Source of the DNA: Candidatus Woesearchaeota archaeon
GTDB lineage: Archaea > Nanobdellota > Nanobdellia > Woesearchaeales > DSVV01
Assembly: GCA_038884615.1 (NCBI GenBank)
Contig: JAWABL010000001.1
Location: 57,837 to 121,836, forward strand
Direction of reading: 5' to 3'
Length of the DNA stretch: 64,000 nt
Of this stretch, positions 4,937 to 62,667 are shown piece after piece; position 1 is the first letter of the stretch; each line of letters begins with the position of its first letter. Made by a program: the position numbers and the translations under genes. The notes beneath the pieces are model-generated. The model did no database searches. It saw nothing but the letters and a program-made list of their open reading frames with translations, and was not told the origin of the DNA.

Positions 4937-7900
4937 TTAATATTCATCCCATGCTTTAATCTCCAGGTCCTCCAGTCGTGTCTTTGAAATTGCATCAACA
5001 AAAAGCTTGGTCAAACTTGTATCTGTAAGAAGAGGGACTGCATGGTCCACTGCTTTCCGTCTTATAAGATACCCATCTGTCACCGCTTCTCTTTTTCCAT
5101 GGTCTGGTATCATTATAACAAAATCAAGCTGTTTTTTTTCTATCATTGTGAGTGCATTTTCTTTTTGTGTGTTGTGCGCTTTTAATACCATCTGGCACAC
5201 AAGCCCATTTTTTCTTAGAAACTCAAATGTATGCTCTGTAGCAAAAAGATTAAATCCCATCGCATAAAGCTTTTTTATAGAATCTAAAAGGCGAAATTTG
5301 TTCTCCTCGTCGCTTATGCTCAAAAGCACATTCTTCTTAGGAAGCTGCAATCCCGTCGCAAGTATGCTTTTTAAAAACGCACTATTAAGATTATCTCCAA
5401 GGCACGCCACTTCGCCTGTTGAGGCCATTTCAACTCCTATAATCGGATCTGCCATCTTAAGTCGCGTAAAGGAAAACTGTGGTGATTTAACTCCGACATA
5501 GTCCATGTCAAGAGTAGATATTCCATACCTTACCTTCTTGCTTAGCATTGCCCTCACGGCAAGATCTATAAAGTTTTGCTTTGAAACCTTTGAAACAAAC
5601 GGAAAGCTTCTAGACGCCCGAAGGTTACATTCTATAACTTTTATCTCATTTTCTTTTGCGAGGTATTGTATATTGAATGGTCCTGTAATGTTAAGCGATT
5701 GCGCGATCATCTGTGTTATTTTTTTAACTCGCCTTGCGGTTTCAAGATAGGTGTTGTTTGGCGGAAAGATTATTGTCGCGTCACCGCTATGTACCCCTGC
5801 TTTCTCAACATGCTCTGACAATGCCCAAATAACAATGCTGCCATTTTTTGCCACTGCATCGACCTCTATTTCCTTGGCATTCCTAATAAACTTGCTTATT
5901 ACAACAGGATGCTCCTTGTTGACCTCGGCTGCATTCGAGAGATATTCTTTAAGTTCAGAATCATTGGCTGCGACACGCATTGCCGCACCGCTCAAAACAT
6001 AACTAGGTCTAACAAGGACAGGATAGCCGACTTTTTGCGAAAATAGTTGTGCGTCGTCAAGATTCGTAAGCTCTTTCCATTCCGGCTGGTCTACGCCAAT
6101 TTCGTCAAGAAGTTTTGAAAACTTGTATCTGTCTTCCGACCTGTCTATATCTTTTGGATGAGTACCTATAATTTTTGCGCCTGCAAAATGAAGCTTTAAA
6201 GCAAGATTGTTTGGTATCTGTCCACCCATAGAAATTATTATCCCATCTGGCTGCTCCTTATCATAGATGTCCATCACAGATTCTATTGAAAGCTCGTCAA
6301 AATACAATCTATCGCATATATCATAGTCTGTGCTAACAGTTTCTGGATTGTAATTTATCATTATTGTTTCATAGCCCAGCTTCCTTAAGCTTATCACTGC
6401 GTTTACACAGCACCAGTCAAACTCTACAGAACTACCTATCCTGTATGCTCCGCTTCCAAGTACTATAACGCTTTTTCTGCGACTGAAAGTCACATCGTCT
6501 TCGCTCCCATTATATGTCAAATAAAGATAGTTTGTCTTTGCCGGATATTCTGCGGCAAGAGTATCAATTTGCTTTATGCATGGCAGAATACCAAAAGATT
6601 TTCTTTTTTCTTTCACTTCCTTCGCTTGACATCCAAGACATATCCCTATTTGTTTGTCTGAAAATCCGCGGCTTTTTGCTTTAAGAAAAACCTCCCTATG
6701 CACAGTCTCAAGAGTGTACTGCCTTAGCTCTTTCTCTGTATTTACAATATTAGATATTTTATGTAAGAACCATTTGTCAATTTTTGAAAGGGAGTATATT
6801 TGATCAGTGCTATAACCTTGTTTAAGCGCCTGGGCAATCGCAAAGACTCTTTCATCGGTAGGATTTGCAAGCTCTTCATCGATGTCCTTACATAGGATAT
6901 TATCATTACAGACAACTCCATTTGCTCCTATCTCAAGCATTCTAATTGCCTTTTGAAGCGCCTCTTCAAACTTTCTGCCTATCGCCATGACTTCTCCAAC
7001 AGACATCATACTGGAGCCTATTTTCTTGCTTACCCTAACAAACTTTTTTAAGTCCCATCTTGGAATTTTGACAACACAATAGTCAAGCGCAGGTTCAAAA
7101 CATGCCGTGGTTATTTGTGTGATTGAATTTCTCAGCTGAGTCAAAGTATAGCCAATAGATAGCTTTGCCGCAATGAAAGCAAGTGGATACCCAGTAGCTT
7201 TTGAGGCTAGTGCAGAGCTCCTGCTAAGCCGCGCGTTTACCTCTATAACTCTATACTCGCTGTTTTTTGGGTTTAATGCAAACTGGATATTGCATTCGCC
7301 GATTACTCCAAGATGACGAATTGCCTTTATCGAGACCTCTCTTAGCATATGATACTCGTAATTTGTTAGTGTCTGGCTTGGGGCAACAACTATACTTTCT
7401 CCGGTATGTATCCCCATAGGGTCCATGTTCTCCATGTTACAGACAGTTATGCAATTATCCATACGGTCCCTCACAACCTCATACTCTATTTCCTTCCATC
7501 CATGAAGGTACTCTTCAACAAGTAACTGTTGTGTGTATGAAAATGCTTTACTTAGCATATCCTTTAGTGATTGCTCATTGTATGCAACACCAGAACCAAG
7601 ACCGCCAAGCGCATATGCAATCCTTACCATTACTGGATAACCTATCCTTTGTGCAATTTCTATCGCCTGGTCTATATTTCTAGCTGCTTCGCTTCGTGGG
7701 GTTTTTACACCAATTTCATCAAGTTTTCTTACAAAAAGTTCCCTATCTTCTGTATCAATTATGGTTTTTACAGGTGTTCCCAGCACCTTCACATTGTTTT
7801 TTTGTAAAATACCTGAATTATAGAGCTCTACGCCACAGTTAAGCGCGGTTTGACCTCCAAAAGAAAGAAGTATCCCATCCGGCTTTTCCTTTTCGATTAC

Positions 7901-9290: not shown

Positions 9291-9450
9291 TTGTTTTAAA
9301 AAAATAGATTACAAAAAAAGGGAAGAGGTTAAAAAAATTAAAGAACATTAATTATTGATTTAGGAGGTTATAGATGCGGCATGAGAAGCGGTCTATCAAA
9401 TATTGCTTGATTTAATCATCTGATTTTTTAATATTTTTTATTATGCATAC

Positions 9451-9631
9451 CGGCTGCGTTCAAAATCTCGTTTTCGGTTGGCTTACCATCATGTTGGCAT
9501 TTTCCATTCAAATCAAAATATCCTGGTTCTCCGTATGGAACAACTCACCTCAGACCTATATACCTCAGACCTATATATTGTTCCTGAATGTGCATACGCG
9601 GTGGATGCTAACACACTTTTTGAACGGTGCC
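9451..9631. mobile_element. miniature inverted-repeat element copy A (~181 bp, non-autonomous)
   Basis: 14-bp terminal inverted repeats GGCTGCGTTCAAAA / TTTTGAACG(GTG)CC; flanked by direct repeat (T)ATGCATAC; internal 15-bp tandem duplication (CCTCAGACCTATATA x2); ~90% identical to copies at 60599..60763 and 62457..62621. Confidence 0.8.
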
Positions 9632-9738
9632 TATGCATACCACAAAATTATTTATTGAATTCTTTAATTTGCTATTCTAATTTGTCACTATTATTGAATA
9701 CTACACAAAGTTTTAATAATGACCCTCTTTCTATTTTT

Positions 9739-18710: not shown

Positions 18711-18833
18711 GCGGGGGTAGCCAAGCGGCTAAGGCGATCGGCTGCAGCAGGTGCTGTAAAAAGCGGTATTATGAGCGTTATGCGATGAAATGAAGATACC
18801 GATTATTCGAGGGTTCAAGTCCCTCTCCCCGCT
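18711..18833 (+). tRNA. tRNA (probably Cys, anticodon GCA) with ~50-nt intron at the canonical 37/38 position
   Basis: acceptor GCGGGGG/TCCCCGC; T-arm GAGGG-UUCAAGU-CCCUC; anticodon stem AUCGG...CCGAU enclosing CUGCAG + ~50 nt; TATA GTTATAAAAAT ~30 nt upstream. Confidence 0.65.
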
Positions 18834-50159: not shown

Positions 50160-50657
50160 AATATAACAATTGTGTTCATTGTTTAAAAATTTTTTTATTA
50201 ATTTTTAGGTATAATTAAAAGAAGTAGCATTAAAAAAAACAGTATTAAAAGAATAGTAGTGGTTTGCAATTTTTAGTAGTATCACACCTCTATTTCCTGT
50301 AGAAATTTATTTCTTATGAATTTTTTATGTATATGTTTTGTGTGATCTGATTAATTTATATTTAAATGAAACAATAAAACAATGGAATTAACGAATTATT
50401 TTGTTCTGTATATTTAATTGCAAGATGCTTATATTTTGTTTCAATATTGAAAAATATTATTACATAATTATAAATTAATCAAAGATGATTATAAATAATT
50501 ATTAACTTTTATTACATTCATATAAAAAATAGTATAAAACACAGAAAACAAGAACTGATTTTAAAAACAATTTTTAAATTTTCCATGAGAAACAATGGGG
50601 TGTTGGTTGTTTTTATTTTAGTAATATTTTTAAAGCATTATTTCTTGTGGAAACTTA
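50160..50657. promoter_or_regulatory. putative chromosomal replication origin (oriC) with ORB-like repeats and AT-rich unwinding element
   Basis: ~500-bp >80% AT intergenic region directly upstream of orc1/cdc6-polD; ORB-like TTCCATGAGAAACAATGGGG (50581..50600) and mini-ORBs TTTCCTGTAGAAA (50293..50305), TTTCTTGTGGAAAC (50641..50654) resemble the archaeal TTCCAGTGGAAAC(G)...GGGG origin recognition box. Confidence 0.55.
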
Positions 50658-60493: not shown

Positions 60494-60598
60494 AAAAACT
60501 ATAAAATAAAACAAGATATTAATTAATTTTTGGTTTGATTTAGTAGGCGAGAAAACCAAATTTATATTGGATGATATAAATAGATTTCTTTCAAATTG

Positions 60599-60763
60599 GG
60601 CTGCGTTCAAAATCTCGTTTTCAGTCGGCTTACCATCATGTTAGCACTTTTCCGTTTAAATGAAAATATCTGGTTCTCCGTATGGAACAACTCACTTCAA
60701 ACCCATATGTGATTCCTGAATGTGCATACGCGGTGGATGCTAACACACTTTTTGAACGCAGCC
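60599..60763. mobile_element. miniature inverted-repeat element copy B (165 bp)
   Basis: perfect 14-bp terminal inverted repeats GGCTGCGTTCAAAA...TTTTGAACGCAGCC; imperfect flanking direct repeat TTCAAAT(T)G; sub-terminal inverted repeats TGTTAGCA/TGCTAACA. Confidence 0.8.
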
Positions 60764-60829
60764 TTTCAAATGGTTGTTCTTTATTTTATATTGGCTTTAT
60801 AGACAGGCTTACAGTAAAAATCGTAAAAA

Positions 60830-61106
60830 TATGCGGGCACACTCCAGAATGGACTTTGCTAGGCTGCATCAGTTTAACCTCGGTACCTTCTCAGTTCCGC
60901 TACCCTGTAAGCACCTGACGACTTAGTTAGTACTGCTCCATTCCTGGCCTGATACCTTTCCCAAGACGCCGATCCTACAGGACAGAACTTCACAGTTGGA
61001 ACCAAGACTGGTGAAACACAGCAATGCCTCTTCTGGAGTTTCGGTCCCATCATATAGCCCATCTATGGTGACAGGAGAGGGCTAACCTCCCGACCTAGCC
61101 CGCAGT
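60830..61106 (-). ncRNA. ffs: signal recognition particle RNA (7S/SRP RNA)
   Basis: minus-strand 5' end UGCGGGCUAGGUCGGGAGGUUAGCCCUCUCCUGU closely matches archaeal SRP RNA Alu-domain start (GGGCUAGGCCGGGGGGUU...UCCCCUGU as recalled); terminal helix UGCGGGC/GCCCGCA; domain-IV-like GUCAGGUG...GGAA...GAUGCAGCC; ~277 nt; TTTTTAAAA TATA ~25 nt upstream; T-run after 3' end. Confidence 0.7.
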
Positions 61107-61243
61107 CCAAAAGAAATGATGGATGTTTTAAAAATTTTCTGGCAGAATCTTAACTTATTAAATTTAACTTATAAAATAATCTACTTAGCCGCCGATTTAA
61201 TTGTTTATTTTATGGAATAAACATAGAATAATAGCAGGTCTAA

Positions 61244-62209
61244 TTATCCTGTTCCAAATCTTATCATTTCCATCAGCCATTCAAGTGAAAATCCCTCTAA
61301 ACCCCAAACAACAAAAAAACCAAAAAGGCAGCCGGCAGTTATAAATGGCATTGCAGGGTAAAATGTGTCGCTTTTTCCTTTAATCATAAGGGTGGCAAGC
61401 GCAAGAGTCGTGATAATTGCAATTAGTATAGGAAACAAAAAAGATGCTGTTAGCTTGAACACAACACCAGAAAAAAGAAGCGGAAACGCTATGTCCCCAC
61501 CCCCTAAAATAGCGCTTTTTTTTGTTGTTTTTTCTGTGTTTTCGTTTAGACTGGTTGTTACTGGCTTTTCATAAGGCACAAAAAAGCCGGCGAACATTTT
61601 TGATTCTGTTTGAAATTGGGCCATCTTTACCATATGCTTACTTTTCCAGACTGCCCAGATGTCATATATTGAAACTGCTATAAGAATAACAGCCACAGAA
61701 ATAAGATTAAGTATTGGAACCAACAATGCAGCAAGACCACCATATACAAATATCTCAGTTATATTATGTATATAGACATTTGGTTTAAGAATTTTGAATA
61801 TGCTCAATGCACAGGCAATAGCGAAAGTAAAAAAAAACGAGTATTCCTCAAGCCCTGTGAGCGCAGCGACCTTTCTTACAAAAGGTGCAAGAGCCATAAC
61901 TAAAGCTATCCCTACACCTATTGCAAACCAAGTTTTCCAAAGCCCTCTTTTCTTAAACTTCATAAGCAGCAGAACCAACACCGTGCCCACCACCACGGCG
62001 AAGAGAACATAAACCCATGAGCCAGACTCGCTTTTTACAGGAGGGGGAGTAAAGCCGGTGATATTGTATGTTTTTTCGTTAATAATAGTTTTTCCTTCTT
62101 CCGATGAACCTCTGGCGTCAATATACTCATTGAGGATAAGTATGCCCATCAATTGCGATGATAGAAATATCGCGAGCAACATTATTGTTACAGGAAATGT
62201 GTGTTTCAT
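61244..62209 (-). CDS. polytopic membrane protein, possible presenilin/SPP-type GxGD intramembrane aspartyl protease
   Basis: 321 aa, ~9 transmembrane helices; YD within a TM (SIYDIW), LGGGD (GxGD) motif and PAMP resembling the PAL motif, in the order expected for presenilin homologues. Confidence 0.4.
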   Translation of the reverse strand: MKHTFPVTIMLLAIFLSSQLMGILILNEYIDARGSSEEGKTIINEKTYNITGFTPPPVKSESGSWVYVLFAVVVGTVLVLLLMKFKKRGLWKTWFAIGVGIALVMALAPFVRKVAALTGLEEYSFFFTFAIACALSIFKILKPNVYIHNITEIFVYGGLAALLVPILNLISVAVILIAVSIYDIWAVWKSKHMVKMAQFQTESKMFAGFFVPYEKPVTTSLNENTEKTTKKSAILGGGDIAFPLLFSGVVFKLTASFLFPILIAIITTLALATLMIKGKSDTFYPAMPFITAGCLFGFFVVWGLEGFSLEWLMEMIRFGTG

Positions 62210-62456
62210 GCTTCACTTAATTTTGCTTTTGGTATTTAATTATTTTGGAATGTTTATCTTAAAAACTTATTATCTTATATTATTGTACCCTATATCCCTA
62301 TATTATTAATTATTCTATAAGATGAATAAGATTACATTTCATGCCTTTTGTATCATCGCACCAAATGCCCTAAAATAAAATAACACATAAAACCACCACT
62401 TTATTCAGTTTTCTTTTTTCAAATAAAAAAAGAAACTGACTGTTTGCGGAAGTTTC

Positions 62457-62621
62457 GGCTGCGTTCAAAATCTCGTTTTTGGTCGGTTTACCATCATATT
62501 GACACTTTTCCATTCAAATCAAAATATCTGGTTCTCCGTATGGAACAACTCACTTCAAACCCATATATGATTCCTGAATGTGCATACGCGGTGGATGCTA
62601 ACACACTTTTTGAACGCAGCC
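62457..62621. mobile_element. miniature inverted-repeat element copy C (165 bp)
   Basis: perfect 14-bp terminal inverted repeats and perfect 9-bp target-site duplication GGAAGTTTC on both flanks; 47 bp upstream of trpS. Confidence 0.85.
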
Positions 62622-62667
62622 GGAAGTTTCAAAAATTATATATACCCCATATGGTGTTCATTTTTGC

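Follow-up and report, generated by a model that had tools for sequence, protein, structure and literature searches.

Results

Gene content of the window and a repeat family in its intergenic DNA

We analysed a 64-kb window, by which we mean the whole stretch of DNA under study, for its genes, RNAs and repeats. A comparison with Rfam placed an SRP RNA of archaeal type at 60831-61105 on the minus strand, so that the host is an archaeon, and the TrpS of the window is 100% identical to MEM4267322.1 from a Candidatus Woesearchaeota archaeon MAG (122,117-bp contig), the next TrpS relatives being ~74% identical. Thirty window ORFs were scanned against Pfam and turned out to be housekeeping genes (pyrimidine synthesis, Nre, CorA, SecY, Cdc6/Orc1, DNA polymerase D small subunit, signal-peptide peptidase); no transposase domain was detected in these 30 ORFs, in agreement with the initial annotation, which had described a window devoid of transposases. 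The scan left out carA, carB, TrpS, the ribosomal-protein block at 28-40 kb and some shorter ORFs; carA, carB and TrpS were identified by other means.

Two other regions of the window are recorded here in their own right. A tRNA of 123 nt at 18711-18833 on the plus strand (Rfam, 47.9 bits) presumably contains an intron, and ARAGORN reported no tRNA in the window. An AT-rich spacer (50160-50657) with inverted repeats at 50348-50481 lies upstream of cdc6/orc1 and is followed by the gene for the small subunit of DNA polymerase D and by a 1217-aa ORF that probably encodes the large subunit; gene orientation and GC skew change between about 40 and 50 kb, and this region is likely a replication origin.

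The window contains a single interspersed repeat family. An HMM built from its copies, together with sensitive BLASTN, recovered exactly three full-length matches, all on the plus strand, and no partial copies within the 64 kb. The copies (A, B and C) and the direct repeats that flank them are as follows.

9442-9451, no strand: left target-site duplication of copy A, TATGCATACC
9452-9631, plus strand: MITE copy A, 180 bp, left end GGCTGCGTTCAAAA, right-end variant ...TTTTGAACGGTGCC
9547-9577, plus strand: 15-bp tandem duplication within copy A, ACCTCAGACCTATAT, 2.1 units
9632-9641, no strand: right target-site duplication of copy A, TATGCATACC
60589-60598, no strand: left target-site duplication of copy B, TTTCAAATTG
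60599-60763, plus strand: MITE copy B, 165 bp, both 14-bp terminal repeats perfect
60764-60773, no strand: right target-site duplication of copy B, TTTCAAATGG, differing from the left one at one position
62448-62456, no strand: left target-site duplication of copy C, GGAAGTTTC
62457-62621, plus strand: MITE copy C, 165 bp, both 14-bp terminal repeats perfect
62622-62630, no strand: right target-site duplication of copy C, GGAAGTTTC, abutting the trpS BRE/TATA motif

All three copies are intergenic and close to promoters. Two divergent genes enclose copy A, which is 203 bp upstream of the start codon of carA; copy B is found 68 bp past the SRP RNA gene, on its 3' side; and copy C occupies the spacer that separates the peptidase gene from the divergent trpS, 46 bp upstream of the start codon of trpS. 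They are collinear and share a pairwise identity of 91.5-93.9% (A-B 150/164, A-C 152/164, B-C 155/165 aligned positions); similarity ends precisely at the terminal repeats, and the flanks are unrelated. Three copies of 165-181 bp with ~90% identity had originally been reported, and this stands except for copy A, which starts at 9452 and not at 9451 and is 180 bp long. With 165-180 bp and no transposase gene, the copies have the small size that is characteristic of MITEs.

The terminal inverted repeat (GGCTGCGTTCAAAA, 14 bp) had been described as perfect, which is correct for copies B and C but not for copy A, whose right arm (GGCACCGTTCAAAA) matches it at 12 of 14 positions. Likewise, the nested sub-terminal inverted repeat proposed for the element (TGTTAGCA/TGCTAACA) is perfect in copy B only and imperfect in copies A (TGTTGGCA) and C (TATTGACA). 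The 15-bp internal tandem duplication reported for copy A was found at the position listed above.

Substitutions among the three copies are unevenly spread, with 3 in 75 terminal positions (1-23 and 114-165) versus 15 in 90 central positions (Fisher p = 0.011). The right 46 nt are invariant across the window copies, and the stretch PECAYAVDANTLF is invariant in all 14 copies now known (see below). Such conserved ends would fit transposase-binding sites, if only copies with intact ends had been amplified.

Target-site duplications

Each copy is flanked by a direct repeat of its own, and none of these repeats lies within a longer duplicated segment, which had been named as the circumstance that would speak against target-site duplications. 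Copy A has a perfect 10-bp repeat (TATGCATACC), misread at first as a near-perfect one (ATGCATAC); copy B has TTTCAAAT(T/G)G, with 9 of 10 positions matching (alternatively 9 bp with one indel); and copy C has the perfect 9-bp repeat GGAAGTTTC on both sides that had already been noticed. Given the base composition of the window, a 9-bp match between flanks has a chance of ~6e-6 per copy. The flanking repeats are thus present and copy-specific as initially proposed, but their length is 9-10 bp instead of 8-9 bp, and it reaches 11 bp in a related element from a metagenome (L008, described below). A length that varies in this way, i.e., 9 (C), 10 (A), 10 with one mismatch (B) and 11 (L008), is uncommon among families whose stagger is strict.

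Copies B and C, in the same orientation and 1.86 kb apart, flank the genes for the SRP RNA and the signal-peptide peptidase (60599-62621), an arrangement that resembles a 2-kb composite transposon. Because each of the two copies has its own duplication, they were inserted independently.

Further copies in the same genome

Gene callers miscall tiny ORFs across MITEs, and it was through such ORFs that further copies were detected. The 55-aa open frame of the element retrieved nine tiny 'hypothetical proteins' in a search of 5.8 billion clusters, and an index-free HMMER search over 1.84 billion representative proteins added three more, which are frameshifted (P0130-P0132). All 12 annotated ORFs (41-67 aa) bear QXK37 locus tags of one NCBI MAG (00660, 00845, 01195, 01215, 01340, 01400, 02510, 03775, 04205, 04945, 05555 and 06585), and no such ORF was found in any other organism among ~15 billion predicted proteins. 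They are located on contigs of 122117 (copy C), 77192, 75197 (four ORFs), 55996, 46530, 31082, 25706, 20266 and 6162 bp. One of them, the 43-aa 'hypothetical protein' QXK37_00660 (P0123), is copy C itself, running out of its right end. The 12 ORFs share the peptide MEQLTSNPY..PECAYAVDANTLFER(S/C), and unrelated sequence starts precisely past the right terminal repeat.

Adding the 11 copies that this MAG carries on eight further contigs to the three of the window brings the family to at least 14 members, and no two of the 11 have the same right flank. The initial annotation had regarded a lack of further copies in the genome as an argument against its reading; at least 11 were found. Gene calling had picked up just one of the window's three copies, from which we infer that the true copy number is probably a few dozen.

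A recurrent right-end variant

A peptide ending in ...LFERC corresponds to the right end TTTTGAACGGTGCC of copy A, and this ending is also present in P0124, P0127, P0128, P0130, P0131 and P0132; the ending of P0129 (...LFNGA) would fit the GGTGCC variant as well, if one base had been deleted. Counted in this way, the GGTGCC right end would occur in 8 of the 14 copies, copy A included, and GGCACCGTTCAAAA is also the left end of the L008 element. The GGTGCC end is a recurrent allele and not the outcome of random decay, and a parent element whose repeats were imperfect is a plausible source of it. Copy A also carries a YIVPEC...ERC signature in common with P0127 and P0128, so that part of its extra divergence from copies B and C reflects a sub-family lineage and not age. 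Copy A had been regarded as the oldest insertion on account of its tandem duplication and its degenerate right end; the tandem duplication is real, but because the GGTGCC variant recurs, the right end is no evidence of age.

The trpS promoter and the reconstructed empty site of copy C

The right duplication of copy C is directly followed by a BRE/TATA motif (AAAAATTATATATA, 62631-62644). In most relatives (e.g., L010, L012 and L050), a BRE/TATA-like motif (AAAWTTATATA) precedes the start codon of trpS by ~20-30 nt, and four others (L048, L049, L051 and L052) have variant AT-rich motifs at this position; a conserved motif so near the start codon suggests a leaderless or short-leader transcript. 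As the right duplication abuts the motif, the insertion of copy C spared the core promoter of trpS. Duplication and motif together read GTTTCAAAAATTATATA in the window, a sequence that recurs upstream of trpS in L012, which has TTTTTCAAAAATTATATA in the equivalent place. The empty site of copy C, as reconstructed, can be aligned with L012. In the relatives, which are distant ones only (TrpS 70-75% identical), the spacer upstream of trpS measures 75-155 bp and is thus shorter than the element; no match to the element was found upstream of trpS among the loci examined at this level of identity, and one contig retains the divergent peptidase-trpS pair with a gap of 142 bp.

Related elements and scans for a parent element

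A metagenome scan matched a sediment contig (L008, JGI Ga0315275_10188935) that carries a strongly palindromic, MITE-like element of 144 bp at 141-284, with the ends GGCACCGTTCAAAA and TTTTGAACGCAGCC and a flanking 11-bp direct repeat (AATTTAATAAG). Over ~30 bp, one end of it is similar to the left end of the window element, and the interior is unrelated. The terminal repeat common to the two elements suggests that they may use a shared or related transposase across lineages.

The closest TrpS relative (L010, JGI Ga0643515_0017177, also in L011; 74% identity) has an unusually long spacer of 480 bp upstream of trpS. A stretch of 163 bp within this spacer (5013-5175) has GTCTGCATTCAAAA at one end, TTTTCAAACGCAGTC at the other, and the exact 13-mer TGGAACAACTCAC at a collinear position. 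It is a probable diverged member of the family, going by these motifs, but in a global alignment with the element it scores only z = 3.3 above shuffled sequences, which makes the relationship tentative. The same contig has an extra AAACGCAGCC motif at 5355-5364, which may be a solo end.

Scans for a full-length parent element combined terminal and sub-terminal patterns in a genome collection, where they gave one chance hit in a coding region of Eubacteriales. One scan of metagenomes yielded L008 and one chance hit (L009), three patterns applied to viral sequences gave only six lone-end chance hits, and a fourth viral scan, for paired ends, returned about the number of matches expected by chance. 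No meaningful match to the element came from BLASTN searches of plasmids and phages, and the other reading frames of the window and L008 elements, searched as a concatenated query, had no matches.

The viral scan for paired ends also brought up an unrelated, palindromic repeat of 157 bp with long inverted ends (ACACCGTTCAAAACGGTACCAAAACGCGACTTCT...) in IMG/VR contigs (L017:700-856, L034:1723-1879 and L031:1936-2092). It was recovered solely through its CGTTCAAAA; L017 and L034 belong to one viral contig of 106 kb and L031 to another of 132 kb.

Discussion

Proposed transposition in trans and its alternatives

The repeats are in our view a genuine MITE family, mobilised in trans by a transposase that is encoded elsewhere and makes staggered cuts of 9-11 bp, and we assign this reading a probability of about 0.9. 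The presence of at least 14 copies and the copy-specific duplications uphold the original identification of a non-autonomous, multi-copy inverted-repeat element with target-site duplications. The mobile unit would be a non-coding segment of ~165 bp, bounded by GGC(TG/AC)CGTTCAAAA and conserved sub-terminal sequence. A transposase from elsewhere, acting in trans and most likely of the DDE type, would recognise the ends and excise or copy the element. The target, intergenic and AT-rich, would be cut with a stagger of 9-10 bp, the element would be inserted there, and the flanking direct repeats that differ from copy to copy would result from repair. The copies that survive would then be the neutral ones, whose insertion sites lie near core promoters but just clear of them.

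According to one survey, Nanobdellota contain members of every one of the 27 annotated families of insertion sequences (PMC13343696), and the taxonomy of the host therefore does not narrow down the family of the transposase. The MAG itself might have no autonomous partner, the transposase being supplied from outside by an attached host cell, a virus or a plasmid; we regard this as improbable. If it were true, several DPANN lineages would have the terminal repeat in common as an 'address', as the elements of L008 and L010 hint.

Could the repeats instead be a dispersed structured non-coding RNA or a regulatory module under selection, with the inverted ends forming an RNA stem? Both strands of the element fold into structures more stable than those of shuffled sequence (z about -3.4), the identity of the right 46 nt among the window copies would suit such a function, and so would the intergenic locations near promoters. 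The stability of the fold, however, stems from the pairing of the terminal repeats, no compensatory changes uphold the inner inverted repeat, and the element has no match in Rfam, either at the gathering score or at E values up to 1. Moreover, copy-specific duplications of 9-10 bp are a scar of transposition that a family of RNA genes leaves unexplained, and we consider an RNA or regulatory origin of the repeats unlikely. The related proposal of the initial annotation, that the copies could supply promoters, terminators or small RNAs, is unsupported, given the lack of an Rfam match and the position of copy C immediately upstream of the trpS core promoter, which is conserved and intact. The two readings are nevertheless compatible, as co-option could turn a MITE into a regulatory module.

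That the repeats are small protein-coding genes, as the NCBI annotation of 12 of them in the MAG implies, is very improbable, even though one frame is open across both copy A and copy C. This frame is interrupted by a stop in copy B and contains offsetting -1 and +1 indels in copy A; P0130-P0132 are frameshift hybrids of two frames; and the C-terminus of every ORF extends beyond the repeat into unrelated flanking sequence. Between copies A and C, the peptide region differs by four non-synonymous changes and one synonymous change (read by eye from the aligned copies), and no homologue of the peptide exists beyond the copies of the element among the 1.84 billion representative proteins. A protein-coding gene was rejected on the frame disruptions, the flank-derived C-termini and the pattern of substitutions. 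The broken and hybrid frames and the 4:1 excess of non-synonymous changes identify the 12 annotated proteins as artefacts, and these 12 'hypothetical proteins' of a public MAG are flagged here as products of miscalling across a MITE.

Equally hard to sustain is an origin of each copy as an independent internal-deletion remnant of a full-length insertion sequence at its own site. MITEs generally arise by such deletions, but all copies have the same internal junctions and the same length of ~165 bp, which points to amplification of one short progenitor. Segmental duplication or recombination of a longer block, for which one could cite the 1.86 kb between the equally oriented copies B and C, is refuted by the comparison of flanks and can practically be dismissed, because similarity stops at the terminal repeats, each copy has its own duplication, and the 11 further copies on eight other contigs have 11 distinct right flanks.

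Comparison with known mobile elements

Among known insertion sequences, the IS903 group (IS5 family) resembles the MITE in that the ends of both begin with GGC. IS903 makes 9-bp duplications, with which copy C (9 bp) agrees, but copies A and B (10 bp) and the L008 element (11 bp) differ. The inverted repeat of IS903 (GGCTTTGTTGAATAAATC, NZ_CP031809.1) and the left end of the element agree at 12 of 18 positions, in a comparison that was chosen post hoc. Resemblance of terminal repeats across IS6, IS256, ISL3 and IS1595 is generic. The end of IS26 (GGCACTGTTGCAAA) and the variant end GGCACCGTTCAAAA have 11 of 14 positions in common. IS6-family elements are common in archaea, move through cointegrates and make 8-bp duplications; a derivative of IS6/IS26 was rejected, as the duplications found here are 9-11 bp long and none of the four is 8 bp. 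IS256/Mutator-like, ISA1214-group and IS4-family elements make duplications in or near the range of 9-11 bp (8-12 bp), some of them variable in length, and one of these groups is a possible source of the transposase.

With copies about 92-94% identical and duplications intact, the family shows that transposons have recently been active in this reduced DPANN genome, which has at least ~1,300 genes. The signature of its terminal repeat, GGC(TG/AC)CGTTCAAAA, could serve in searches for the partner transposase and for related elements elsewhere in the Woesearchaeota. In a 2024 NAR census of 8,220 archaeal genomes (downloaded in August 2022), 'a Woesearchaea genome' reached 105 MITEs per Mb (PMC11602168), so MITE-dense woesearchaeal genomes had already been noticed by automated detection. 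No paper in the literature searched names both Woesearchaeota and miniature inverted-repeat elements, and the family is probably undescribed. Its biology is ordinary, and our understanding of MITEs or of archaeal genome biology is unchanged by it.

Archaeal MITEs have been known since the description of SM1-SM4 in Sulfolobus solfataricus (Redder, She and Garrett 2001), for which 25-44 copies per genome are given where that work is cited (PMC10969869). The present family differs from them in its host, a member of the DPANN/Woesearchaeota versus the Thermoproteota, and partner insertion sequences are known for the SM elements. SM1-SM4, present in tens of copies, are mobilised in trans by resident insertion sequences, and here we find at least 14 copies and infer mobilisation in trans. 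By description, the two are alike in being short, non-coding and intergenic, in having inverted repeats and target duplications, and in residing in an archaeal host.
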